A program made the position numbers and the translations under genes. From Candidatus Omnitrophota bacterium (GTDB taxonomy: Bacteria; Omnitrophota; Gorgyraeia; 2-01-FULL-45-10): 64,000 nt of DNA. The notes beneath the pieces were generated by a model, which saw only the letters and a program-made list of their open reading frames with translations, was not told the origin of the DNA and made no database searches. The stretch covers positions 1,078 to 65,077 of the forward strand of contig PLNN01000024.1 in assembly GCA_003142795.1 (NCBI GenBank), written 5' to 3'. Shown piece by piece: positions 1,382 through 17,446 of this stretch; position 1 is the stretch's first letter; the number at the start of each line of letters is the position of its first letter.

Positions 1382-1415
1382 GAAGCTCTCGCAATAAGCG
1401 GGAGCTTTTCTATTT
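1382..1415 (+). terminator. Rho-independent terminator after the pseudouridine synthase gene
   Basis: GAAGCTCTCGC / GCGGGAGCTTT stem (about 10 bp, one G-U pair) followed by TTTTCTATTT. Confidence 0.5.
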
Positions 1416-1427
1416 GTAATATTAACT

Positions 1428-1790
1428 ATGGAGGTGGTTATGAAAAAGATCATGATGTTGATAGTGTTTTTAGCGGTGTTGGTGTGGAGCGTTTCCGGCT
1501 ATTGTCAGCCTTCGGGTCAAGCGGGAACTGGTAGCAGCGGCAGCAGCGTAGGAGACACAGGTAACGCGAGCAGCGCCGGGCAGGAAGCCCCGCCTTCAGC
1601 TCAAACTGGAAGCATGGGCAGCGCCAGCCAGGAATCCTCAGCAGTGAGCGAGTCTTCCAATAGATCTGACGCCATTGAGGATAACGCCCAGCAAGGGAGA
1701 GAGCAGTCTGAGAGTAATATAAATCATATGGAAGATCAGATGGCCTCTCACAGTACGTCGCAAAAAGAGGTTGATAAGATAGGCCGTTGA
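1428..1790 (+). CDS. secreted low-complexity protein (signal peptide, Ser/Gly/Ala-rich, acidic C-terminus)
   Basis: N-terminal hydrophobic signal MKKIMMLIVFLAVLVWSVSG, then SGSSGSS/ASSAG repeats. GGAGG ribosome-binding site upstream. Confidence 0.45.
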   Translation: MEVVMKKIMMLIVFLAVLVWSVSGYCQPSGQAGTGSSGSSVGDTGNASSAGQEAPPSAQTGSMGSASQESSAVSESSNRSDAIEDNAQQGREQSESNINHMEDQMASHSTSQKEVDKIGR

Positions 1791-1817
1791 AGCAGTCTGA
1801 TATTTTAGGAGATATTT

Positions 1818-2090
1818 ATGGCGGAGATTAAAGTCGAAAAGTTAGGGCGCGATGCGCTTGAGAAGATGGGTGTGTTCAAGTGGCCGGTATGGACTAAGGA
1901 AGTGTCGAAATTCGATTGGACCTATGACTCTGTCGAGCGCTGCTATTTTCTCGAGGGACAGGTTACGGTGAGTTGCAAAGGAGGCAAGGCGGTAAGTTTT
2001 GGGAAGGGTGATTTTGTGACGTTTCCGAATGGGCTAAGCTGTGTTTGGGATGTCAAGCAGGCGGTGAGGAAGCACTATCAGTTTGAGTAG
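1818..2090 (+). CDS. small cupin-fold protein (DUF861-like)
   Basis: 90 aa. The pattern GDFVTFPNGLSCVWDV resembles single-domain cupins. Confidence 0.55.
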   Translation: MAEIKVEKLGRDALEKMGVFKWPVWTKEVSKFDWTYDSVERCYFLEGQVTVSCKGGKAVSFGKGDFVTFPNGLSCVWDVKQAVRKHYQFE

Positions 2091-2098
2091 CGAAAATA

Positions 2099-2143
2099 GG
2101 GACTGTCCCCGGACTGGGGCTTGACTAAGGTGGGGACTGTCCC
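2099..2143. repeat. REP-like palindrome doublet (GGGACTGTCCC x2)
   Basis: gggactgtcccc...ggggactgtccc sits directly 3' of the cupin gene. The same GGGGAC/GTCCCC core recurs across the island. Confidence 0.4.
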
Positions 2144-2311
2144 AATTTTCGCTCGTGGTAGAATGTGCTGCGTCGAGTGGTTCGCAGGGACGCTCAATTT
2201 TGGACCATGCCAAAATTTTCGCTCGAAAAACTTGCTCGGACGCTGCCTCGCAAGTTTTCACGCCCTGCTCACCACATCGCCACATCACATTCCTGACGTA
2301 GCGAAAAATTT
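2144..2311. repeat. MITE-like / sRNA-like repeated element, copy A (terminal inverted repeat AATTTTCGC...GCGAAAAATT)
   Basis: About 90 % identical to 22161-22336. Termini are inverted repeats and the interior is strongly palindromic. It has no ORF. Confidence 0.5.
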
Positions 2312-2349
2312 AGCCATTATTGTTCGAGCGAGCAATTATTTAACTCTTG

Positions 2350-2380
2350 CGAGTCGAGAACTTCTCGACTCGGGATTTTT
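2350..2380 (+). terminator. Rho-independent terminator just downstream of MITE-like copy A
   Basis: CGAGTCGAG aactt CTCGACTCG perfect 9-bp stem followed by GGATTTTT. Confidence 0.5.
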
Positions 2381-2471
2381 CGTCAACGGGGCGGTGGCTG
2401 GTTCACTGACCGAGTGAGGCTGGTGCGTGATTGAATAGAGTGAGACGAACATTTTAAATAACGGAGGGGAC

Positions 2472-3152
2472 ATGAAAAATAAATTAATCGTATTATCTAT
2501 TTTATTAGGTTTACTGTTTCCCTCAACTCGAAATGCATATTCAGAAACTGCTCCAAGGCCTGCCTCCGACATAACAGTAATTTCGTTCAAGATCGAACAG
2601 CAGAAAGATACCTACCCTTATCCTGGCCCAATAGGGAGTAGCATAGATTCTATGGGCAACATTTATCGTAATAATGCCTATTTATGCGTTGATTTAAAAA
2701 ATAATAGCAATGCTTGGGAGTATGCCAACGTACCGTTAAGGATTTATTATTACGATAAAAATGATTTCAAGTTTTCAGAAGTGATAGTTAAAACTCCAAA
2801 TGGTGAAAAGATATCTTTGGGAGAAGAAAAGAAATTTAGAATATTTCTCGAAGGTTCAGAGTATCCCTATGAGCAAACAGTTGGTTTTAAATACAAGGTG
2901 ATCGTATCGCCTGAGGATATAAGGACAACCAGTGATTGGAGAAGCCTAAAGGTTGGTATGACCCAAGATGAAGTCCGCAAAATTTTGGGTGAACCCACGC
3001 ACATAGATGAGCCTGCTTCTGATAGCCCAACCTGGACATATTATGCAGGAGACTTGATCCCTTTATCAGGAAGCAGGGTATATTTTGGAACCATTGGGCC
3101 ATTATGGAATCAAAAGAAGTTGGTAGTAAAAAAATGGGAAGAGCCCCTGTAA
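2472..3152 (+). CDS. secreted protein with a C-terminal BamE/SmpA-OmlA-like domain
   Basis: Signal peptide MKNKLIVLSILLGLLFPSTRNAYS. The C-terminus has LKVGMTQDEVRKILGEP, typical of BamE-like domains. Its stop overlaps the start of the next gene (TAAATG), and the region is AT-rich. Confidence 0.45.
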   Translation: MKNKLIVLSILLGLLFPSTRNAYSETAPRPASDITVISFKIEQQKDTYPYPGPIGSSIDSMGNIYRNNAYLCVDLKNNSNAWEYANVPLRIYYYDKNDFKFSEVIVKTPNGEKISLGEEKKFRIFLEGSEYPYEQTVGFKYKVIVSPEDIRTTSDWRSLKVGMTQDEVRKILGEPTHIDEPASDSPTWTYYAGDLIPLSGSRVYFGTIGPLWNQKKLVVKKWEEPL

Positions 3153-3944
3153 ATGAATGTCAAATCAGTAAAGATGGAATTTAATACCATAAACGATGCA
3201 CGAAATTTAATTAAGGAGTTAGAATCTGAATCAAAAAAAGTTTTATTTAGAGGCCATTCTAATGCGGAATGGAAGCTACTGCCCTCGGTAGGAAGAAGTA
3301 ATAAGACCGTAATTGTTGAAAATAAGGAACTTGTTGAATTTAAGGCTACAGTCTTAGCGATATCAGAAAAGTATAAAGGCAACAAATATTTCCAAGAGTT
3401 TGGTTCGTCAGATTTTAGTTTATTTGCATTAGCGCAACATTACGAATTATTCCCTACACGGTTTCTTGATTGGACAGATCATGTATTAATTGCTCTGTTT
3501 TTCGCTAGTAATAATCATCCATCGTTAGATGGTTGTATTTGGATGTTTTCCGTGCCAGGTAATTCTAACCCCTGTTGGCGGATATCCGAAAGAAATGACG
3601 ACCCTTTAGCGTATGAGCAGTTAAAAATATTTTTTGTGCCATTCTTTATAGACGAATGGAGAGAGAAAATAGAAAATAAAACCTTTGGCAATCGGCGTCC
3701 ACAAGTACAGCGGTCCATAATGACCATCCATCCTAAAATAGAGAACAATTATAAGAGTTTGAACGAATTAATTGCTGGGGAAATGCTTTCTCAAATTAAA
3801 ATTCCAGCTCAAAGCAAGGAGAGTATTTTAAAAATTCTGTCCGAGGAATACTTCATTAATGCGGACACCATTTTAAATGGGAAAACTGCTCTAGACATAA
3901 AAAGTGAACAGGCTTGGAAAGATATCTTGCAGAAAAATATATGA
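3153..3944 (+). CDS. FRG-domain protein
   Basis: The N-terminal VLFRGHSNAEWKLLPSVGRS matches the FRG motif (F-R-G ... W.L.PS..R). 263 aa, translationally coupled to the upstream gene. Confidence 0.5.
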   Translation: MNVKSVKMEFNTINDARNLIKELESESKKVLFRGHSNAEWKLLPSVGRSNKTVIVENKELVEFKATVLAISEKYKGNKYFQEFGSSDFSLFALAQHYELFPTRFLDWTDHVLIALFFASNNHPSLDGCIWMFSVPGNSNPCWRISERNDDPLAYEQLKIFFVPFFIDEWREKIENKTFGNRRPQVQRSIMTIHPKIENNYKSLNELIAGEMLSQIKIPAQSKESILKILSEEYFINADTILNGKTALDIKSEQAWKDILQKNI

Positions 3945-3956
3945 ATTTGTAATAAC

Positions 3957-4011
3957 GGGGACGGTCCAGAAAGGGCCACCCCATGGGAGGGTACCAAAAG
4001 GACCGTCCCCA
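3957..4011. repeat. REP-like long hairpin (GGGGACGGTCC ... GGACCGTCCCC)
   Basis: 11-bp perfect inverted repeat with a loop of about 32 nt, lying between the FRG gene and the nuclease-domain gene. Confidence 0.45.
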
Positions 4012-4066
4012 GAAATTCATTAAAACGTGAAATAAAATATAAACCGAATAATTGGAAAACTAAACA

Positions 4067-5311
4067 ATGATAAATTCACAGGATGAACTATTGTTTCACG
4101 AAATAGATTTTCCAAATTTGCTCGGAGAAATGAAGAGAGGCCTTAATACAGAAATCTCGTCATTAAGTCGTGATCGAATGCTTAAAGAATCCGATGATGA
4201 TCTTTACGCTTTCTTTGTTGAAAAATACTCTCCCGTAGTCGCTGTATTACATGATGAACAAAAACATGTACTCCCTCCAAAGGATATTCGCATAGATGTT
4301 AGAGGTCGTTTTGATTACGCAATAGAGGATGAGAGGGCGCCTGCATTCGTCAAAGGAACTTTAATTACAATTGTAATTCCGTTTGAAGGCGACAGCCAAT
4401 ATTTTAAATTCCGGCCTTCAGCATATTCATTGTCCGGCGTTCGTGGTGATATTATTGATAATGAAGTGCATTTGAAATATTCGGGCCTCCCTCAAGACAT
4501 GAGTACAGAAGCTATAAAAACTAAAATGGAGCACGATATCAAACAGATAAAGGAATATTTAACACGATTGTCGCAAGAAACCGAAACTCATAATAAATAT
4601 GTAAAAGATGAAACACGAAAACTTCTTGATGCAAGAAGAAATGCGGTTCTGAAAGATGAATCATTAGTTGAGAGCCTCGGAATACCCATTAAGCGGCGGC
4701 CCGATGATAATTCAACTTTTACTATTCCAGTTGTAAGGAGGATGCCTGCGATTGAACAACATCACGATAAAACTCCTAAGCCAAGAGAGCCTATTTTACA
4801 AGAAGTAGAATATAACCACATTTTAGACTTGATTTCACGCATGGCTATTGTTATGGAGCGTAGCCCAAAAGCTTTTTACGAAATGGATGAGGAATCGATA
4901 AGATGGCAATTTTTAATTCCACTAAATAGCCATTATGAAGGCATGGCCTCAGGAGAAACGTTTAATTATTCTGGCAAAACAGATATACTTATTCGTTTTG
5001 AGGGCAAAAATGTGTTTATTGCCGAATGTAAAATTTGGCAAGGTGCAAAGGTATTTCTCGATACTATTGACCAAATTTTGAAATATACTAGCTGGCGCGA
5101 TACCAAAACTGCGATTATCTTGTTTAATAAAAATGAAAACTTTACATCAGTTCTTGCACAGATCCCGAATCTAGTTAAAACGCACCCATCTTTTGTATCT
5201 GATTTAGGAAAGCGAGACGAGACAATTTTTAAATTTATCCTTCATAACCCCGAGGATAAAGACAGAAAATTAATCATGACGGTTTTGGCATTTAACATTC
5301 CAAAAAAATAA
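4067..5311 (+). CDS. hypothetical protein with a C-terminal PD-(D/E)xK nuclease-like domain (Shedu/Mrr-like architecture; N-terminus unknown)
   Basis: 414 aa. The C-terminal motif GKTDILIRFEGKNVFIAECKIW reads as D-x(n)-E-x-K, the catalytic signature of the PD-(D/E)xK nuclease fold. AT-rich. Confidence 0.45.
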   Translation: MINSQDELLFHEIDFPNLLGEMKRGLNTEISSLSRDRMLKESDDDLYAFFVEKYSPVVAVLHDEQKHVLPPKDIRIDVRGRFDYAIEDERAPAFVKGTLITIVIPFEGDSQYFKFRPSAYSLSGVRGDIIDNEVHLKYSGLPQDMSTEAIKTKMEHDIKQIKEYLTRLSQETETHNKYVKDETRKLLDARRNAVLKDESLVESLGIPIKRRPDDNSTFTIPVVRRMPAIEQHHDKTPKPREPILQEVEYNHILDLISRMAIVMERSPKAFYEMDEESIRWQFLIPLNSHYEGMASGETFNYSGKTDILIRFEGKNVFIAECKIWQGAKVFLDTIDQILKYTSWRDTKTAIILFNKNENFTSVLAQIPNLVKTHPSFVSDLGKRDETIFKFILHNPEDKDRKLIMTVLAFNIPKK

Positions 5312-5401
5312 GGGATAACGGTGCTAGATTAATTGTGGGGACGGGGATGGAGGCGATCCCAGACCTGTTCCGGGACAAAAGATATAGGAGAGATAATGTA
5401 A

Positions 5402-5863
5402 ATGTGTCCTACGACTGGCTTGTTGCAATTGGTTCTCACTGGATTATTCCTCTTTCTCGTATTCCAGGTTATAAAGACGTATAATGCCGCTAAAACGAAT
5501 TTTGGGACACTTTCAGGATTGTTATCAACGCCGAAGACTAAATGGGGATATTTGTCTATCAGGCTTGAGGGGACTTATAAGGGCAGAAAGGCGGCATTGA
5601 ACTATTGGTTGGTGGGAGTTGAAGGGGGTTATCAAATAGACTTTTACATCGAACCGATAGGCGATTTAAAGAAACAAAAATTTATTTTTTTGAGTTATCC
5701 GAAGCCGACAGAAAACACTGTTTTAAGAGGAAAAAAGCTTCTCTATTCAGATCCCTATTTCCGCAATAGGCCGCATGAGATATATCCTGTTCAGAAATTT
5801 ACAGATATATTGGAAACGTTGACCCAGGCAGCCGGTATAGTGGAAAGTCAGGGGAGAAAATAG
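5402..5863 (+). CDS. hypothetical protein with an N-terminal transmembrane helix
   Basis: 153 aa with hydrophobic N-terminus LLQLVLTGLFLFLVF. No recognisable domain. Confidence 0.35.
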   Translation: MCPTTGLLQLVLTGLFLFLVFQVIKTYNAAKTNFGTLSGLLSTPKTKWGYLSIRLEGTYKGRKAALNYWLVGVEGGYQIDFYIEPIGDLKKQKFIFLSYPKPTENTVLRGKKLLYSDPYFRNRPHEIYPVQKFTDILETLTQAAGIVESQGRK

Positions 5864-5887
5864 CGAGTTTATGGAATTTGGAATTCA

Positions 5888-5900
5888 GGGGACGTTCCCC
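5888..5900. repeat. REP-like palindrome GGGGACGTTCCCC (left flank of the transposase)
   Basis: This is the exact inverted copy of GGGGAACGTCCCC at 6647-6659 on the other side of the Y1 transposase gene. Confidence 0.5.
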
Positions 5901-6047
5901 AAGGCGACAGACTGTTAGATTGTAACGCATTGTAAACAAAGATGTTGTAACTGCGTTAAGAAATATTTTAAAATAATTGCAATAATTTTCCTCTTTTTAT
6001 CGTCTATATATATGAGAAGCATATAGACTGAAAAAGGAGGATTTTTT

Positions 6048-6635
6048 ATGTCAAGACAAGCCCGCTTATTGGAAGATGGCGGCTATTATCACATCATTAC
6101 CCGTGGTAATGATCGCAAGCGGATATTCCGATCTGACCCTGATTTCATCTATTTTTTAAAACTTGTCAAAGAAGCCCTGGGAAAGAAGAGTATTAATATT
6201 CATCACTATTGCCTGATGAATAATCATCTGCATTTTCTGATAAGCGTTATTGATTCAAGGCTAGCGCCGAAGTTCTTCCAAAACATATTTCAGCGATATG
6301 CCTATTATTTCCGTAAACGTTACCGGCATGTAGGCTATCTATTTCAAAATAGGTATAAAAGCTATCCGATCGAAAAGGATGGCTACTTATTGGAATGCGG
6401 CCGATATATCGAAAGAAACCCTTTAAGGGCAGGCATTGTTAAAGATGCGGTGGATTATCGATGGTCCAGTTATTTACATTATGCCTGTGGCAAAAAAGAT
6501 GATATAATATTATCAAATCCTGCGTACATAGAATTATCACAGGATGATGATGAGCGTAAGCGTTTATATAGGGAATACATTCTTCAGGAAAGACCTTACG
6601 AACATCTTGTAGATAAAGGACTTAGGGTCGGGTAG
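6048..6635 (+). CDS. HUH/Y1 transposase, IS200-like / REP-associated tyrosine transposase (RAYT)-like
   Basis: 195 aa. N-terminal YHIITRGNDR, the HUH motif NNHLHFLI, the Tyr motif GYLFQNRYKSY, and the C-terminal NPLRAGIV...YRWSSY typical of IS200-like/RAYT proteins. Confidence 0.75.
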   Translation: MSRQARLLEDGGYYHIITRGNDRKRIFRSDPDFIYFLKLVKEALGKKSINIHHYCLMNNHLHFLISVIDSRLAPKFFQNIFQRYAYYFRKRYRHVGYLFQNRYKSYPIEKDGYLLECGRYIERNPLRAGIVKDAVDYRWSSYLHYACGKKDDIILSNPAYIELSQDDDERKRLYREYILQERPYEHLVDKGLRVG

Positions 6636-6638
6636 TGT

Positions 6639-6659
6639 GTCCCCGCGGGGAACGTCCCC
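6639..6659. repeat. REP-like palindrome GTCCCCGCGGGGAACGTCCCC (right flank of the transposase)
   Basis: Contains GGGGAACGTCCCC, the reverse complement of the left-flank copy, plus a nested CCCCGCGGGG palindrome. Confidence 0.5.
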
Positions 6660-6686
6660 GATAGTGAATAACTAACTAGGAGAATT

Positions 6687-6938
6687 ATGCGTAAATTTGT
6701 TATGGTTTTAGCGCTGATCGTGGGACTGTCTATTACGGTTTACGCCGCCGATGAGAAGAAAGTTAAAGGCATAGAGGTGGTGCCGGAAACAGTAACCGCC
6801 GTGGTTGATAAGACAAACGCATTATTGTCGGGCAAGCTGGAATTTACGATGACGGAAGATAGGTCCAAATATAATAAAAAATATACAGTGAACGCCCTCG
6901 GAAATAAAGTCCCGGCTTCAACTGTTACGAAAAATTGA
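6687..6938 (+). CDS. small secreted protein
   Basis: Signal peptide MRKFVMVLALIVGLSITVYAADEK, with an AGGAG ribosome-binding site. Confidence 0.4.
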   Translation: MRKFVMVLALIVGLSITVYAADEKKVKGIEVVPETVTAVVDKTNALLSGKLEFTMTEDRSKYNKKYTVNALGNKVPASTVTKN

Positions 6939-6958
6939 AAACGTTTAAATATGGAATC

Positions 6959-6992
6959 TGGGGACGGGCCATTTGGGGACACGCGGCGGAGG
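6959..6992. repeat. REP-like GGGGAC cluster containing the 21-mer TTTGGGGACACGCGGCGGAGG
   Basis: ggggacgggccatttggggacacgcggcggagg. The same 21-mer recurs at about 8232-8252. Confidence 0.4.
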
Positions 6993-7039
6993 GGGATGCG
7001 CCGAAGCAGGACGTTTACACAATGTCTGGGGCGACTGTA

Positions 7040-7434
7040 TGAAAATTGCGTTTAATGTTTTAGTTTTTATGTGCATATTTCTTTCTTTGGGGTTAACGGG
7101 ATGTCAAAATTCCGATCTTAAGGATCCGTACGAGATAAATGTAATCAAGGCAAAGACGCTTCCGCTAGGTATTCCAAAGGGCATGCTAATACCAGAAATG
7201 AGAGGTGCGCCTTTACAATCCTCTGGTTTTACGAAAGATGAAAAATATGAGATCATTTATTTTAAAACACCCCCCATCAATTCTGAGAATGTAGGCGTGC
7301 TTGTTGAAGTGAGTAGCCAACAAGTTGTAGGATTTCGGGTTTACGAGTGGGTATATAGAGCGCTTGATCAATATGTGGACGTAGTGCGAAAAGAATTTAA
7401 TATGACCTCAGATAAAGCACAACGGTTGCCATAG
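7040..7434 (+). CDS. lipoprotein (lipobox LTGC)
   Basis: The internal start MKIAFNVLVFMCIFLSLGLTGCQN gives a signal peptide plus lipobox. The track ORF begins upstream at 6973 with a glycine-rich unlikely N-terminus. Confidence 0.5.
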
Positions 7435-7480
7435 CAAAATAAGTCAAAGGAGTAAGAACCAGGATAGAAGGGACGAATAA

Positions 7481-7639
7481 ATGAAAAAATGTAAAAGGTG
7501 CGGGGTGCCGATGGAGGGGTTCATGTATAAGTGGGTGGCGGCGAAGCTATTTGGCGTAAAACCATCCGGGAAGAATGCGGATCTGTGCAATAAGTGCGAG
7601 GACAAGCCGGAGAAAACTTGGGGGTGCTGTAAATAAAAT
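7481..7639 (+). CDS. small zinc-ribbon protein (CxxC...CxxC, 52 aa)
   Basis: MKKCKRCGVPMEG...CNKCEDKPEKTWGCCK. Sits in an intergenic gap on the + strand and is below the ORF-track length cutoff. Confidence 0.3.
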
Positions 7640-7704
7640 TCGGGGATATGGGTCCTTGACAAGGTTCATCACTTATGATACACTTATAGCAGGAGGTGAA
7701 TGAT

Positions 7705-7935
7705 ATGGCTACAAAGATGCCGAGACTCAATGTGGTGCTTGAACCACCGATGTATTTTGCCATTGTCAGTATGGCCAAAAAGGAAGGGATATCTCTTTCC
7801 CTGAAAGCCCGTGATCTCATACGGGAAGCGTTGGATTTCTGCGAAGATAGCTTTTGGACTAAAGAAGCGAACAAAAGAGAAAGAACATTCAGCCGCAAAA
7901 GAGCGCTTTCCCATAAAAAGGTTTGGGGTAAGTGA
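7705..7935 (+). CDS. type II antitoxin, ribbon-helix-helix-like
   Basis: The ATG at ~7705 is preceded by AGGAGG. MATKMPRLNVVLEPPMYFAIVSMAKKEGISL has a beta-strand then helices. Its stop overlaps the toxin's start codon. Confidence 0.55.
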   Translation: MATKMPRLNVVLEPPMYFAIVSMAKKEGISLSLKARDLIREALDFCEDSFWTKEANKRERTFSRKRALSHKKVWGK

Positions 7936-8210
7936 TGAAGTATAGTTTGATCTATCATCCCGACGTATACGGTGAAGATATTAAGAATATTCCCGCCAAC
8001 ATAAAAAAGCGTATACGCAATGCTATCGAAACGCGCCTTCAGAACGATCCAATACTTTACGGTAAACCTTTGCGTCAAAGCCTCAAAGGGCATAGGCGGC
8101 TTCGCGTCGGCGATTGGCGTGTCATTTATAGAGTAGAAGCACATGAAGTTGTAATTCTCAGGATAGGGCACCGGAAAGAGATCTATAACAAGCCTCCCCG
8201 AAGATTCTGA
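7935..8210 (+). CDS. relE: type II toxin, RelE/ParE family
   Basis: LRVGDWRVIYRVEAHEVVILRIGHRKEIY matches the RelE/ParE C-terminal motif. About 91 aa, overlapping the antitoxin stop. Confidence 0.75.
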   Translation: MKYSLIYHPDVYGEDIKNIPANIKKRIRNAIETRLQNDPILYGKPLRQSLKGHRRLRVGDWRVIYRVEAHEVVILRIGHRKEIYNKPPRRF

Positions 8211-8220
8211 TAGGAAATCC

Positions 8221-8253
8221 GGGGGGCGGGAGTTTTGGGGACACGCGGCGGAG
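8221..8253. repeat. REP-like GGGG cluster containing the 21-mer TTTGGGGACACGCGGCGGAGG
   Basis: Exact 21-nt match to 6972-6992, immediately upstream of the start codon of the 8257 gene. Confidence 0.4.
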
Positions 8254-8256
8254 GAT

Positions 8257-8652
8257 ATGATGGATAAGAAGAAGCTGATAAAGAATATCGTGTGGATCAT
8301 TGCCATAGCGGTGTACGTGTGGTTATTTGTGTCGCTTGAGCCGTGGCGGATAAATGTTAAGGAATTGATGAGCGGATGGGGTCTATTTACCTTGCTTATC
8401 ATCATCACTATGCCGGGGCTTATCGTATCATGTATAGGCATGATCCTGGGCAAGAAGGGGTTCGGTAAGGCATTCGTGATATTCAATGGTATCTATTTGG
8501 TATGCGGGGCTTATATGGTATACTTTGCATGGACTTTTTACATATTTAAGGTCCCAACGCTGATGGAACGGCTCGCAAGCACGCGATCCAGTATATTGTT
8601 CGGCATCCTTATGCCGTTAGTCCTTTTTTATTATCTGGAAAGAACTAAATGA
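8257..8652 (+). CDS. integral membrane protein (about 4 transmembrane helices)
   Basis: 131 aa with hydrophobic segments IVWIIAIAVYVWLFV, LFTLLIIITMPGLIVSCIGMIL and FVIFNGIYLVCGAYMVYFAW. Confidence 0.45.
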   Translation: MMDKKKLIKNIVWIIAIAVYVWLFVSLEPWRINVKELMSGWGLFTLLIIITMPGLIVSCIGMILGKKGFGKAFVIFNGIYLVCGAYMVYFAWTFYIFKVPTLMERLASTRSSILFGILMPLVLFYYLERTK

Positions 8653-9386
8653 TCAAGAGTGTTGTACGGGCAGAAGCGGCAAAGAGGGCGTTGAGGAAAT
8701 ACGGAGATAAAGAAAAAGCAAGACTTCTTAAGCGGTACTTTAAGACAGGGCCGGGTGAATACGCGGAAGGGGATGTTTTTATCGGCGTTAACGTGCCGAT
8801 AGTCAGAAAGCTGGCGAAACGGTTCGAGGATCTGGGCCTCGCAGAGAATGTCAGATTATTGAAATCGTCGATACATGAAGAACGATTGCTTTCGCTTTTA
8901 ATTTTTGTTTCGAAGTTTTCGCGCTCGGACAACGATCGCAAAAAAGAGATATACGATATATATCTGAAGCACACCGGGTATATAAACAACTGGGATCTTG
9001 TCGACGTTACGGCCAAACGTATTGTCGGTGCATACTTGATGGATAAAAACAAGTCACCATTATACAGGCTGGCTAGATCGAGATCGGTATGGGAGAGAAG
9101 GATCTCGATATTATCGACGTTCCATTTTATCGATAGACGTGAATTTAGTGATGCGCTGAAGATAGCCGAAATGCTATTGTCCGACCGGCAGGACCTGATC
9201 CATAAAGCGGTGGGCTGGATGCTCAGGGAGGTCGGTAAGAAAGACGTTGCCGCGGAAGAAGGATTTTTACAAAAACATTGCGCAATAATGCCGCGGACAA
9301 TGTTGCGCTATGCCATTGAACGATTTCCTGAAAGGAAACGGCGCGGTTATTTAATTAATAGATATATAACCGGAGGTATAAAATGA
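8649..9386 (+). CDS. DNA alkylation repair protein (AlkD/AlkC-like HEAT-repeat glycosylase family)
   Basis: 245 aa. Motifs NNWDLVDVTA, WERRISILSTFHFI and HKAVGWMLREVGK are characteristic of the DNA_alkylation family. Confidence 0.65.
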   Translation: MIKSVVRAEAAKRALRKYGDKEKARLLKRYFKTGPGEYAEGDVFIGVNVPIVRKLAKRFEDLGLAENVRLLKSSIHEERLLSLLIFVSKFSRSDNDRKKEIYDIYLKHTGYINNWDLVDVTAKRIVGAYLMDKNKSPLYRLARSRSVWERRISILSTFHFIDRREFSDALKIAEMLLSDRQDLIHKAVGWMLREVGKKDVAAEEGFLQKHCAIMPRTMLRYAIERFPERKRRGYLINRYITGGIK

Positions 9387-9536
9387 GCCAGGAAGAACAC
9401 ATATTGCATGAATTGAAAGAGATGCATGTCTGGGTCGCGCATGCCGACAAGCAGATATCGCGCGTGAAGTGGTCGCTTTTCGGTCTTTTGAGCATCCAGA
9501 TAATTATCATATTACTGATGCTGGTCAAGAAATAAT
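9384..9536 (+). CDS. small membrane peptide (about 50 aa), hypothetical
   Basis: MSQEEHILHELKEMHVWVAHADKQISRVKWSLFGLLSIQIIIILLMLVKK. Overlaps the previous stop and was not in the ORF track. Confidence 0.2.
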
Positions 9537-15385: not shown

Positions 15386-17446
15386 ATGGGAATCCTTGAA
15401 CCAAGCGGTATCAGGAATATCATACTTCTGGGCCATTCCGGTTGCGGCAAGACCTCTTTGGCCGAGGCCATGCTTTACGCGGGCGGCGCCATACCCAAGA
15501 TGGGCAAGGTCGATGAAGGCAATACAATTTCGGATTATAACGAAGACGAGAAAGGGAAGAAGCATTCCGCAAGCTCATCCCTCATGAGCTTTGCATACAA
15601 TTCAAAGAAGATAAATATAATAGACATCCCCGGTTATACGGATTTTGTGGGAGAGATGATAGGCGGCCTGGCAGCTGCCGATGCCTGCATAGTTGTAGTC
15701 AATGCAACAGGCGGCATAGAGATAGGTACTGAGCGCGCATACAGGATGGCGATGGAAAAGGGAGTTCCCTGCATCTTCTTCATAAACATGCTCGACAAAG
15801 AGTATTCCGATTACGACAAATGCTTTGATGACATTAAGAAAAAATTCAGAAAACACTGCGTTGCCGTGGATGTTCCCGTGGGGAAAGAAGCGGCATTGAA
15901 AGATGTCGTAAATATAGTGAACCGTAAAGGGCTCGATACGCTCTCCGATGCCGATAAGGCGCACGCCAAAGGCCTTGCCGACGAACTTGCCGAAGCCGTT
16001 GCCGAGACCGACGATGCGTTACTCGAAAAATATCTTGATAAGGGAGAATTGCCGCTCGAAGACCTGAATAACGCTTTCAAAAAAGCCGTTGTGAAAGGCG
16101 ACGTAACGCCCATACTTTGCGGCTCGGCCCTGCGGAATGTGGGCATCAAAGAACTCCTGGAAATGACGGTGAATTATCTTCCGTCGCCCGCTGACAGGCC
16201 GGCGGTAGCGGCAGTCAAGCCGGACACGGGCGAAAAGGTGACTGTAGCGATAGATCCTAACGGCCCGTTCGCGGGGCTCGTTTTCAAGACCTTATCCGAC
16301 CCTTTCTTGGGTCAGATATCGCTCTTCAAGGTATATTCCGGCAAACTTCAATCTAACGGCAGTTTTTATAATGTAACTAAAGGCGTAAAAGAAAAGATCG
16401 GCGCTATATTCACTCTCATGGGCAAGACTCAGATACCGATGGATTTCGCGCTGGCCGGAGACATAGCGTGCGTCTGCAAACTGAAAGAGACACAGACCGG
16501 CGACTCGATAGCCGATGAAAAAAATCCGGTAAAGTTCGAAGATATACAATTCCCGGAACCCGCCATCTCTTTTTCGCTGAAACCTAAGACAAGAGCGGAT
16601 GAAGATAAGATATCCACCGCGATCCATAAGATAAGCGCCGAGGACCCGACTTTCAGGATGACCAGGGATGAGCAGACCAAAGAGATGATAGTCTCCGGTA
16701 TGGGCGACGTGCATATCAATACGATGATAAACAGGATGAAGATGCGCTACGGGGTCCAGGTCGAGGTCGGTACGCCAAAGGTTGCTTACAAAGAGACCAT
16801 AATGAGTAAGGGCGATGCCCAGTACAGGCATAAGAAGCAGACGGGCGGCGCCGGGCAGTTTGCGGAAGTGTGGATGCGCATAGAGCCGCTTCCGCGTGGT
16901 ACGGGTTTTGAATTTGTCAACGAAGTCGTGGGTGGGGCAATACCGAGGCCTTTTATCGTGTCATGCGAGAAAGGTGTAAGGATGGCTTTGCAGTCCGGTG
17001 GTATGGCAGGTTATCCGGTCGTCGATGTCAGGGCCATAGTATATGACGGAAAGACGCATCCGGTCGATTCCAAAGATATAGCTTTCCAGACGGCGGCGCG
17101 CCACGCGTTCAAGGAATCTATGGAGAAGGCAAAGCCGGTCCTTCTGGAGCCGATAATGGATGTCGATATTGCGGTGCCCGATGAGTTCATGGGGGACATA
17201 ACGGGAAGCCTGAATTCCAGGCGGGGCAGGGTAATGGGGATGGAGCCGGGAGACGGTGTGCAGACGATAAAAGCGAAAGTTCCGCTTGAAGAGATGTATA
17301 AATATGTGAATGAGCTGAAGTCTATTACAGGCGGCCGCGGCACGTATTCGATGAACTTTTCGCATTATGAGATAGTGCCGTCCGTCCAGGCGCAGGCTAT
17401 TATGGAAAAAGCGAAGCATAACAAGAAAGAGGAAGTGGAGGAATAA
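15386..17446 (+). CDS. elongation factor G family GTPase (EF-G paralogue)
   Basis: The G domain has GHSGCGKTSL (G1), DIPG (G3) and NMLD (G4). Domains II-V are EF-G-like. 686 aa. Confidence 0.85.
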   Translation: MGILEPSGIRNIILLGHSGCGKTSLAEAMLYAGGAIPKMGKVDEGNTISDYNEDEKGKKHSASSSLMSFAYNSKKINIIDIPGYTDFVGEMIGGLAAADACIVVVNATGGIEIGTERAYRMAMEKGVPCIFFINMLDKEYSDYDKCFDDIKKKFRKHCVAVDVPVGKEAALKDVVNIVNRKGLDTLSDADKAHAKGLADELAEAVAETDDALLEKYLDKGELPLEDLNNAFKKAVVKGDVTPILCGSALRNVGIKELLEMTVNYLPSPADRPAVAAVKPDTGEKVTVAIDPNGPFAGLVFKTLSDPFLGQISLFKVYSGKLQSNGSFYNVTKGVKEKIGAIFTLMGKTQIPMDFALAGDIACVCKLKETQTGDSIADEKNPVKFEDIQFPEPAISFSLKPKTRADEDKISTAIHKISAEDPTFRMTRDEQTKEMIVSGMGDVHINTMINRMKMRYGVQVEVGTPKVAYKETIMSKGDAQYRHKKQTGGAGQFAEVWMRIEPLPRGTGFEFVNEVVGGAIPRPFIVSCEKGVRMALQSGGMAGYPVVDVRAIVYDGKTHPVDSKDIAFQTAARHAFKESMEKAKPVLLEPIMDVDIAVPDEFMGDITGSLNSRRGRVMGMEPGDGVQTIKAKVPLEEMYKYVNELKSITGGRGTYSMNFSHYEIVPSVQAQAIMEKAKHNKKEEVEE

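Follow-up and report, generated by a model that had tools for sequence, protein, structure and literature searches.

RAYTs (REP-associated tyrosine transposases) and their repetitive extragenic palindromes (REPs) form the main example of a single transposase gene that is kept by its host while short, nonautonomous partners populate the genome. To our knowledge, nearly all that is known of RAYT/REP systems comes from Proteobacteria, and the literature that we searched contained no paper linking Omnitrophota with RAYTs, with REPINs (REP doublets forming hairpins), or with tyrosine transposases. We analyzed a 64-kb stretch of contig PLNN01000024.1 from a Candidatus Omnitrophota bacterium, hereafter the window, in which a gene for a Y1 HUH transposase-like protein lies between inverted repeats at positions 5888 to 6659. 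We consider it probable that this segment is a unit of the TIRtron/REPtron type, in which a single-copy class-2 Y1 gene is set between inverted cognate 26-nt repeats of two parts.

Y1 transposases (TnpA_Y1) have been split into class 1, with a Y---Q motif (IS200/IS605), and class 2, with a Y---NP motif (RAYTs sensu lato) (Quentin et al. 2018, PMC6006769). Subclass 2.1 is described by the motifs NHVH or NH[YF]H, W[EQ] or FQ, YIELNP or Y[IV]HLNP, and SS in the proximal tail, by a median length of 238 amino acids, and by a distal C-terminal segment said to be helix-turn-helix (HTH)-like (PMC6006769). In the scheme of Bertels et al. 2017 (PMC5581495), this subclass is RAYT Group 1, and Quentin et al. 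equated it (PMC6006769) with the TIRYTs (terminal inverted repeat-associated tyrosine transposases) of Di Nocera et al. 2013 (PMC3733652), a name that appears in just two papers of the literature that we searched. TIRYTs are Y1 genes whose terminal inverted repeats share the motif GGGGWSAS, forming "TIRtrons," rather than being GTAG-footed REP hairpins (PMC3733652). Repeat partners had been doubted for this branch; for subclass 2.1, Quentin et al. reported an absence of REP-like sequences (PMC6006769), and the 16-mers flanking Group 1 RAYTs had only about 12 copies genome-wide (Bertels et al. 2017, PMC5581495). The canonical REPtron (REP plus RAYT) is that of subclasses 2.2, 2.4, 2.5, 2.7, and 2.8.

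The unit in the window contains the following features.

6048 to 6635, + strand: gene for a 195-amino-acid class-2 Y1 HUH transposase-like protein (RAYT/TIRYT type); intact open reading frame (ORF) with an ATG start.
5888 to 5913, + strand: left terminal inverted repeat, with outer module GGGGACGTTCCCC at 5888 to 5900 and inner module GGCGACAGACT at 5903 to 5913.
6634 to 6659, − strand: right terminal inverted repeat, reading GGGGACGTTCCCCGCGGGGACACACT on the minus strand; 16.5 bits on the repeat model described below.
5989 to 6041, + strand: leader hairpin formed by TCCTCTTTTTATCGTCTATAT as the 5' arm and ATATAGACTGAAAAAGGAGGA as the 3' arm; the latter includes the Shine-Dalgarno (SD) sequence.

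An earlier note on this DNA had reported that GGGGACGTTCCCC and its exact reverse complement bracket a Y1 ORF. We confirmed these copies, at 5888 to 5900 (+) and 6647 to 6659 (reverse complement), and they are the only two exact ones in the window. Allowing up to two mismatches, we found 4 matches where 0.83 was expected. For the gaps flanking the gene (184 nt upstream and 51 nt downstream), the probability that they share an exact 13-mer in inverted orientation by chance is about 1.4e-4 (184 x 51 / 4^13). The 13-mer is real but forms only the outer half of a 26- to 28-nt, two-part terminal inverted repeat, which in the window extends over 26 nt on each side (5888 to 5913 and 6634 to 6659) with 22/26 positions complementary. 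The inner module of the right arm, GGGGACAC, fits GGGGWSAS, and that of the left arm, GGCGACAG, matches this motif at 7/8 positions. The inner end of the right arm overlaps the transposase stop codon by 2 nt, and the left arm lies 134 nt before the ATG, a distance within the range found at homologous loci.

The 195-amino-acid protein scored 53.5 bits on Pfam Y1_Tnp (PF01797; cutoff, 23), 63.8 bits on NCBIfam REP_Tyr_transpos (NF047646), and 16.4 bits on the IS200/IS605 model (NF033573; cutoff, 55). Whereas a phmmer search of the PDB with the single protein gave no match at an E value of ≤1, a profile built from 30 homologs matched Escherichia coli TnpA_REP (4er8) best, over positions 4 to 143 and above the IS608 and ISDra2 TnpA proteins. 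The AlphaFold model (pLDDT, 88.2; pTM, 0.86) also had 4er8_A as its top PDB neighbor in Foldseek (E = 1e-7; 160 columns; TMt, 0.74), with the IS608, ISDra2, and IS200 transposases aligning over only about 104 columns (TMt for IS608, 0.66). Clustering with IS200/IS605 TnpA that has canonical insertion sequence (IS) ends, which the note had named as a refutation of its reading, was not borne out. The HUH motif NHLHFLI had been identified correctly, with NHLH at residues 59 to 62 and both H60 and H62 invariant among the 30 homologs and TnpA_REP. Further motifs are FQ (99 to 100), Y120-IERNP125, and WSSY (139 to 142), and Y120, N124, and P125 are also invariant in the alignment that includes TnpA_REP. 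The solved TnpA_REP active site comprises H59 and H61, Y115 as the catalytic residue, and N119 as a ligand of the metal (PMC3479197), to which H60, H62, Y120, and N124 of the window protein correspond. From this alignment, the nucleophile is most likely Y120 in RYIERNP, the counterpart of Y115. The tyrosine of GYLFQNRYKSY, proposed earlier as catalytic, is Y103 (QNRYKS); since this residue aligns with a Phe of TnpA_REP, it is an unlikely nucleophile.

A search of 5.8 billion proteins returned 824 homologs. Nearly all of the best 120 of these 824 are 194 to 203 amino acids long, and the named ones come from metagenome-assembled genomes (MAGs) of Omnitrophota. An exhaustive profile search returned 3,565 cluster representatives at an E value of ≤1e-30 and 26,329 at ≤1e-10, and the 195- to 200-amino-acid clade grades into proteins of 220 to 330 amino acids that match profile positions 1 to 180. 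Elongation factor G (EF-G), encoded at 15386 to 17446, is 81 to 85% identical to EF-G of named Candidatus Omnitrophota, and the host therefore lies within this phylum. The ORFs adjoining the transposase gene (153 and 83 amino acids) had no Pfam match and are too short for TnpB.

The window protein belongs with the RAYT-type, class-2 Y1 HUH enzymes and is not an IS200 TnpA, and its nearest described relatives are the TIRYT/TIRtron proteins (subclass 2.1, RAYT Group 1). Like TIRtrons, the unit has a Y---NP gene between terminal inverted repeats that are not canonical REP hairpins, GGGGWSAS in the repeat (GGGGACAC in the window), FQ instead of W[EQ], a tyrosine motif of the form YIE-x-NP, an SS tail motif (within WSSY), and further repeat copies that occur as singles, dimers, and clusters. 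The protein departs from the subclass 2.1 motifs in that YIERNP is one residue off and the hydrophobic HuH residue is L/I, which is not listed, instead of V/Y/F. It is also shorter, at 195 amino acids against a median of 238, and lacks the distal C-terminal segment; the repeat has the additional outer module GGGGACGTYCCC. A tblastn search against plasmids found full-length homologs at 34 to 42% identity, including genes of Pseudomonas aeruginosa and Rhodospirillum rubrum flanked by the repeats AAAGGGGACAGATTTATTTTCC and TTAAAAGGGGTCAGACCCC (in shortened form, AAAGGGGACAG... and AAAAGGGGTCAG...), both carrying GGGGWSAS. The plasmid proteins of P. aeruginosa, R. rubrum, and Skermanella rosea are 230 to 250 amino acids long, and their distal 35 to 55 residues are missing from the aligned Omnitrophota proteins; Pfam detected no HTH in either the Omnitrophota proteins or these plasmid relatives. 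Because the three plasmid homologs, two of which have verified GGGGWSAS repeats, score just under the NF047646 cutoff at 75 to 77 bits, this model is tuned to other subclasses. E. coli TnpA_REP (YafM; Ton-Hoang 2012; Messing 2012, PDB 4er8; subclass 2.2, RAYT Group 2), the top profile and structure match, shares the HUH, Tyr, and Asn active-site residues with the window protein but is only 17% identical to it; W94 of TnpA_REP is F in the window protein, and a longer helical C-terminal tail also sets the two apart.

Support for a cognate relation between gene and repeat came from homologous loci, for which we took 10 kb on either side of the best 80 matches (41 to 61% protein identity) from 78 assemblies. 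These loci, and the metagenome contigs considered below, are designated by L numbers. An inverted repeat with a score of ≥12 bracketed the transposase gene in 63/73 testable loci, in contrast to 7/476 control genes from the same loci. In nearly all loci the bracketing repeat is 24 to 38 nt long with the consensus (A/T)GGGGACGTYCCC-N3-5-GGGACACCCTA, its left arm 65 to 150 nt before the ATG and its right arm 0 to 57 nt after the stop codon. The inner module of the family consensus is GGGGACAC or GGKACCAC, and repeat positions C21, A22, and C23 are invariant. From one genome to another the repeat varies, in both arms of a unit alike, as with the variants GTAGGCGTCCTACTTTGGTACACCCTAC in L065 and GGAGCCATCCTCCGGGGGGACACCCTC in L042 and L074. 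L069 is syntenic with L042 and L074 yet has the repeat GGGGCCATACACTTAGGGGACACACCT.

With a 28-nt hidden Markov model (HMM) of the repeat, hand-seeded from 24 arms, we detected 118 flanking and 46 other copies in 1.09 Mb of homolog loci. The nonflanking copies include inverted pairs and, in L012, a run of seven copies on the same strand. Thirty-two dispersed copies were 96% identical to the flanking arm of their own genome, compared with 73% to the arms of other genomes. Only 22% of the copies lay inside ORFs of ≥120 amino acids, which make up 84.5% of the bases in the same contigs, and single repeats had no orientation bias relative to flanking genes (14 versus 10). In related genomes and metagenomes, cognate copies are thus dispersed, extragenic, and genome specific.

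Some loci had unusual repeats. In two lineages, L065 (9897 to 9925) and L068 (9835 to 9856), the outer module is GTAGGCGTCCTAC, which forms a perfect stem of 5 bp and opens with GTAG, a tetranucleotide characteristic of canonical REPs; CCTAC recurs at the inner end. A start with GTAGG is confined to these rare relatives. At L072, a 130-nt inverted repeat (1532 to 1661 and 2341 to 2470; 129/130 positions) flanks the homolog on a contig of 2470 nt and extends to the contig end. It could be an assembly artifact or a much longer terminal repeat of that lineage.

Gene-less repeat pairs were common in metagenome contigs, of which a scan with the pattern GGGGACGTNCCNNNNNGNNNCACCC yielded 120 that were chosen by the repeat alone. 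Only four contigs had a clear homolog of the transposase (49 to 55% identity), and one more had a weak one (33%). Adjacent copies within 300 nt were arranged "+-" in 54 cases, "++" in 3, "--" in 3, and "-+" in none, and the "+-" pairs have their ends arranged as in the full unit, GGGG being outermost. Pair spacers were 2 to 236 nt, and 61 copies were single. The outer flanks of the repeats are A/T rich, and we detected no target-site duplication, direct-repeat matches of 2 to 6 nt being at expectation. Among these pairs is a noncoding element of 232 to 238 nt with a conserved interior between the same inverted repeats, found at at least six unrelated sites with 76 to 94% identity.

L142, 917 to 1148: 232- to 238-nt element.
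L149, 3372 to 3603: the same element.
L123, 1389 to 1620: the same element.
L196, 4942 to 5178: the same element.
L179, 117 to 346: the same element.
L193, 1432 to 1668 and 5803 to 6038: the same element, twice on one contig.

Homology between these copies stops sharply at the repeat ends, and Rfam had no match for the family. The occurrence of this element at unrelated sites is direct evidence that repeat-bounded units have moved. Such pairs set the system apart from subclass 2.1/Group 1 as described, and they resemble the Pseudomonas REPIN-RAYT system (Bertels and Rainey 2011, PMC3116915), in which gene-less inverted units of two repeats with a short spacer, extragenic and genome specific, are matched to a vertically inherited single-copy Y1 gene. 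In contrast to the Pseudomonas system, the Omnitrophota proteins belong to another RAYT group, and the pairs, whose spacers vary widely (2 to 236 nt) and include one 232-nt family of conserved interior, are more like MITEs (miniature inverted-repeat transposable elements).

The edges of the repeats in relatives carried a further signature. Exact tandem duplications of 8 to 30 nt, comprising outside flank and the first few repeat bases, crossed the outer edge of 23/302 copies but only 3/4984 random positions. They occurred at L006, L007, L013, L015, L018, L029, L030, L058, L060, L107, L134, L143, L145, L169, and L191, among others. The commonest right-hand junction (7/23) falls after GGGGACG, at the center of the terminal mini-palindrome. 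These junctions may be a footprint of strand breakage, or they may reflect polymerase slippage at the center of a palindrome.

As for inheritance, three groups of species share an insertion site (L011/L014/L016, L038/L045/L051, and L042/L074/L069), with a protein identity of 68 to 83% that lies inside the range of the neighboring genes (42 to 97%). The window holds one family member. Two assemblies have two homologs each (L031/L056 and L049/L052), each with its own repeat variant, as has also been reported for multi-RAYT Pseudomonas genomes, and L066 and L071 have a second homolog within 6 kb. With the copy count of the window taken from 64 kb, this pattern fits a resident, diverging RAYT gene better than an insertion sequence.

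The leader of the gene is also conserved, at 5963 to 6047 in the window and over the 85 nt upstream of the homologs (loci L002 to L081). Its elements follow in the order of a -35-like box (TTGAAAGAA, GTTAGATT, or TTGCAATAAT), a CCTCC tract, a CGTCTAT(T/A) box, GGAGG, often a T run, and the ATG; in the window, the SD sequence GGAGG at 6036 to 6040 precedes six T residues and the ATG. Base pairing is between the SD sequence and the CCTCC tract, and the arms covary; L038 has ACCAC/GTGGT, and the stem in L012 is a perfect one of 14 bp. The DNA fold of the hairpin in the window has an energy of -10.3 kcal/mol (z = -5.0; 0/200 shuffles as good), and the SD sequence is fully paired upstream in 72% of 64 homolog leaders compared with 23% of shuffled controls. 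Judging by these sequences, expression is probably kept low through pairing of the SD sequence with the upstream CCTC tract, and the leader would limit translation and protect the gene against read-through. In IS200, too, a stem-loop of the leader conceals the ribosome-binding site. A terminator scan did not call the leader hairpin, whose loop exceeds the limit of the tool, and the one sigma-70-like site on the strand of the gene (5945 to 5974) is within chance expectation; we claim no promoter.

Besides the flanking arms, the window contains several repeat-like sequences outside the unit.

3957 to 4010 (3957 to 3983, + strand; 3984 to 4010, − strand): degenerate, REPIN-like gene-less inverted pair; outer ends GGGG; 11.6 bits on the repeat model.
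6960 to 6985, + strand: single degenerate copy GGGGACGGGCCATTTGGGGACACGCG, in the gap after ORF 6687 to 6938.
8222 to 8247, + strand: single degenerate copy GGGGGCGGGAGTTTTGGGGACACGCG, 88% identical to the copy at 6960.
2089 to 2153, no strand assigned: inverted pair AGCGAAAATAGGGACTGTCCCC ... GGGGACTGTCCCAATTTTCGCT, with arms complementary at 91%; fold, -22.1 kcal/mol (z = -7.1).

Counting both strands, the window has 24 occurrences of GGGGAC, of which 11 fall within the 7.3% of its bases that no ORF covers (binomial p = 3e-7). For the two-part pattern GGGGNC-N8-12-GKNMCAC there are 4 matches where 0.11 would be expected, a count reached in 0/100 shuffles. Of five related palindromes proposed earlier, those at 2099 to 2143, 3957 to 4011, 6959 to 6992, and 8221 to 8253 are real relatives, whereas the one at 5337 to 5380 has only GGGGACG in common with the repeat and is doubtful. 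The arms of the pair at 3957 to 4010 abut between ORFs 3153 to 3944 and 4067 to 5311 and fold as a long hairpin (-16.4 kcal/mol; z = -3.5). The pair at 2089 to 2153 shares only the outer GGGGAC-N-GTCCC module, with a different inner module, and was missed by the repeat model, so its relation to the family is tentative. The last 11 nt of the copy at 8222 to 8247 open an 18-nt stretch (8237 to 8254) identical to 6975 to 6992. These 18 nt, GGGGACACGCGGCGGAGG, consist of the inner repeat module and GGAGG. Since the second occurrence stops 2 nt short of the ATG, the ribosome-binding site of the gene at 8257 appears to be supplied or adjoined by a repeat copy.

Several observations weigh against a TIRtron/REPtron-type unit or narrow what may be claimed for it. 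The score of 63.8 bits on NF047646 is below the curated cutoff of 80. The two arms in the window differ at 4/26 positions, and the left arm matched the model of the homolog-loci repeat only weakly (nhmmer, 10.7 bits; E = 0.86). A lone arm forms a hairpin of only 5 to 6 bp, GGGGA-CGT-TCCCC (-4.6 and -7.4 kcal/mol; z = -1.2 and -1.4), no better than shuffles; RNAalifold predicted no pairs on 76 repeat arms, and neither the GGGGA/TCCCC hairpin nor pairing of the 3' half of module 1 with module 2 had covariation above shuffled or slid controls. We therefore claim no defined single-arm hairpin. The extra copies in the window are degenerate, being about 65% identical to the flanking arms with at most 11.6 bits, and all lie at 2 to 8.3 kb, no more than 4 kb from the gene; no copy occurs in the other 55 kb, with its gaps of 350 to 490 nt. 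We therefore claim for this genome only a local grouping of copies, and neither dispersal across the genome nor an active repeat population. At most homolog loci, the neighboring genes are unrelated, a pattern compatible with some movement of the unit as a whole, either horizontal or within a genome. Finally, cleavage, the nucleophile, and mobilization in trans are steps that we infer for TIRYT-type proteins by analogy. The core of the earlier REP-RAYT-REP description stands, in that a RAYT-like Y1 gene lies between cognate inverted repeats and related copies occur in intergenic gaps nearby, but the arms are not canonical REPs. As in the E. coli REPtron, a gene that is single copy (in 64 kb) sits between inverted cognate repeats, which here lack the stable, imperfect, long bulged hairpin and the 5' GT[AG]G foot of canonical REPs. 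With no such foot in either arm and a weak fold, "terminal inverted repeat" and "TIRtron" are more exact terms than REP and REPtron.

One alternative is an autonomous insertion sequence, in which the 772-bp segment moves whole and the gene-less pairs are MITEs arising by internal deletion. The anatomy is IS-like (terminal inverted repeats, one transposase gene, and an expression-insulating leader), the gene-less pairs have the end geometry of the full unit, neighbors are unrelated at most loci, two homologs occur at L031/L056, L049/L052, L066, and L071, and among the RAYT groups, Group 1 comes second in its likeness to insertion sequences (PMC5581495). The unit also shares with IS200/IS605 transposases (IS608, ISDra2, and IS200; subclass 1.1) the HUH/Y1 core fold (TMt of about 0.6 to 0.66), a presumed single-strand cut-and-rejoin chemistry, and the absence of a target-site duplication. 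It differs from them in having Y---NP instead of Y---Q, a score of 16.4 against the cutoff of 55 on the IS200 model, inverted repeats instead of same-orientation subterminal hairpins as ends, no tnpB, and single divergent copies instead of many near-identical ones. An insertion sequence would also sit poorly with one copy in 64 kb, with the differing proteins and repeats of L049 and L052, with three species groups in which the gene keeps the same site at neighbor-like divergence, and with a gene in just 5/120 repeat-selected contigs. We consider such an element unlikely.

Alternatively, the protein could be an HUH enzyme that is fully domesticated and serves the host in a role apart from repeat mobility, its repeats being regulatory or operator sites, terminators, or mRNA-stability elements that spread otherwise. 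The long vertical persistence of an intact ORF, the intergenic position of the repeats (often just after stop codons), the strong folding of the pairs in the window (z = -3.5 and -7.1), the copy that abuts the SD sequence of ORF 8257, and the argument that RAYTs are host co-opted (PMC5581495) would all suit this possibility. It is nonetheless quite unlikely in our view, given the 232-nt repeat-bounded element with sharp ends at at least six unrelated sites, the pair orientation (54 "+-" and 0 "-+"), and the tracking of the cognate protein by repeat sequence. Together, these three findings argue for transposase-mediated spread, with which a host benefit could coexist. A last proposal is that the bracketing palindromes are chance occurrences or generic G+C-rich, terminator-like hairpins with no tie to the gene. 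Although a lone arm folds no better than shuffles and GGGG runs are common on the coding strand (188 GGGG and 76 CCCC), the exact 13-mer occurs at these two places only and in inverted orientation, the two-part pattern was found 4 times against 0.11 expected, and repeats bracket 63/73 homologs compared with 7/476 controls. The homolog bracketing and the excess of the two-part pattern refute this proposal, to which we attach almost no probability.

Under a TIRtron/REPtron-type reading, and with E. coli TnpA_REP and IS608 TnpA as models, the protein would bind the repeat as single-stranded DNA, with a metal held by H60 and H62 (and N124), and DNA would be cut and rejoined via a covalent 5'-phosphotyrosine at Y120. 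Repeat-bounded pairs may be mobilized or amplified in trans, being excised or copied and reinserted without target duplication, while the gene itself would stay at one site and be vertically inherited. The inner module, GGGGWSAS with the invariant CAC, may be a recognition tag common to these and proteobacterial TIRYT repeats, and the outer GGGGA-CGT-TCCCC mini-palindrome may be a lineage-specific addition. Strand breakage may occur near the latter because the tandem-duplication junctions of relatives cluster after GGGGACG. If the duplications do mark breakage, the system would differ from E. coli TnpA_REP, which cleaves at CT beside the hairpin. A broader proposal is tentative, and we regard it as possible rather than probable: a phylum-wide, mostly vertical, tail-less TIRYT-like lineage of Omnitrophota may drive REPIN/MITE-like pairs, with the duplications marking in vivo breakage inside the terminal mini-palindrome.

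The locus indicates that the same design extends across an uncultivated phylum of small genomes, in the least-studied branch of these enzymes (TIRYT/subclass 2.1/Group 1). The family offers a compact 195-amino-acid enzyme, a putative two-part substrate of 26 to 28 nt with natural covariation, and junction footprints, so that rules of recognition and cleavage are directly testable with it. For annotation, such genes should not be counted as IS200 insertion sequences, and short repeat pairs would account for many assembly breaks and intergenic hairpins in Omnitrophota MAGs.

The repeat cluster in the window lies in a run of short ORFs without Pfam matches (1400 to 9400). This region also includes a weak BamE-like ORF (2472 to 3152) and an FRG-domain ORF (3153 to 3944), and several of the short ORFs have signal-peptide or lipoprotein-like N termini, e.g., ORF 6687 to 6938 and the one with the ATG at 7040, which is followed by an LTGC lipobox. 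The TTG start at 6973 chosen by the gene caller probably overextends this lipoprotein ORF into the repeat. Rfam matched no tRNA or other family at threshold over the 64-kb window. Nearly all long ORFs of the window are on the + strand, on which GGGG (188) outnumbers CCCC (76).

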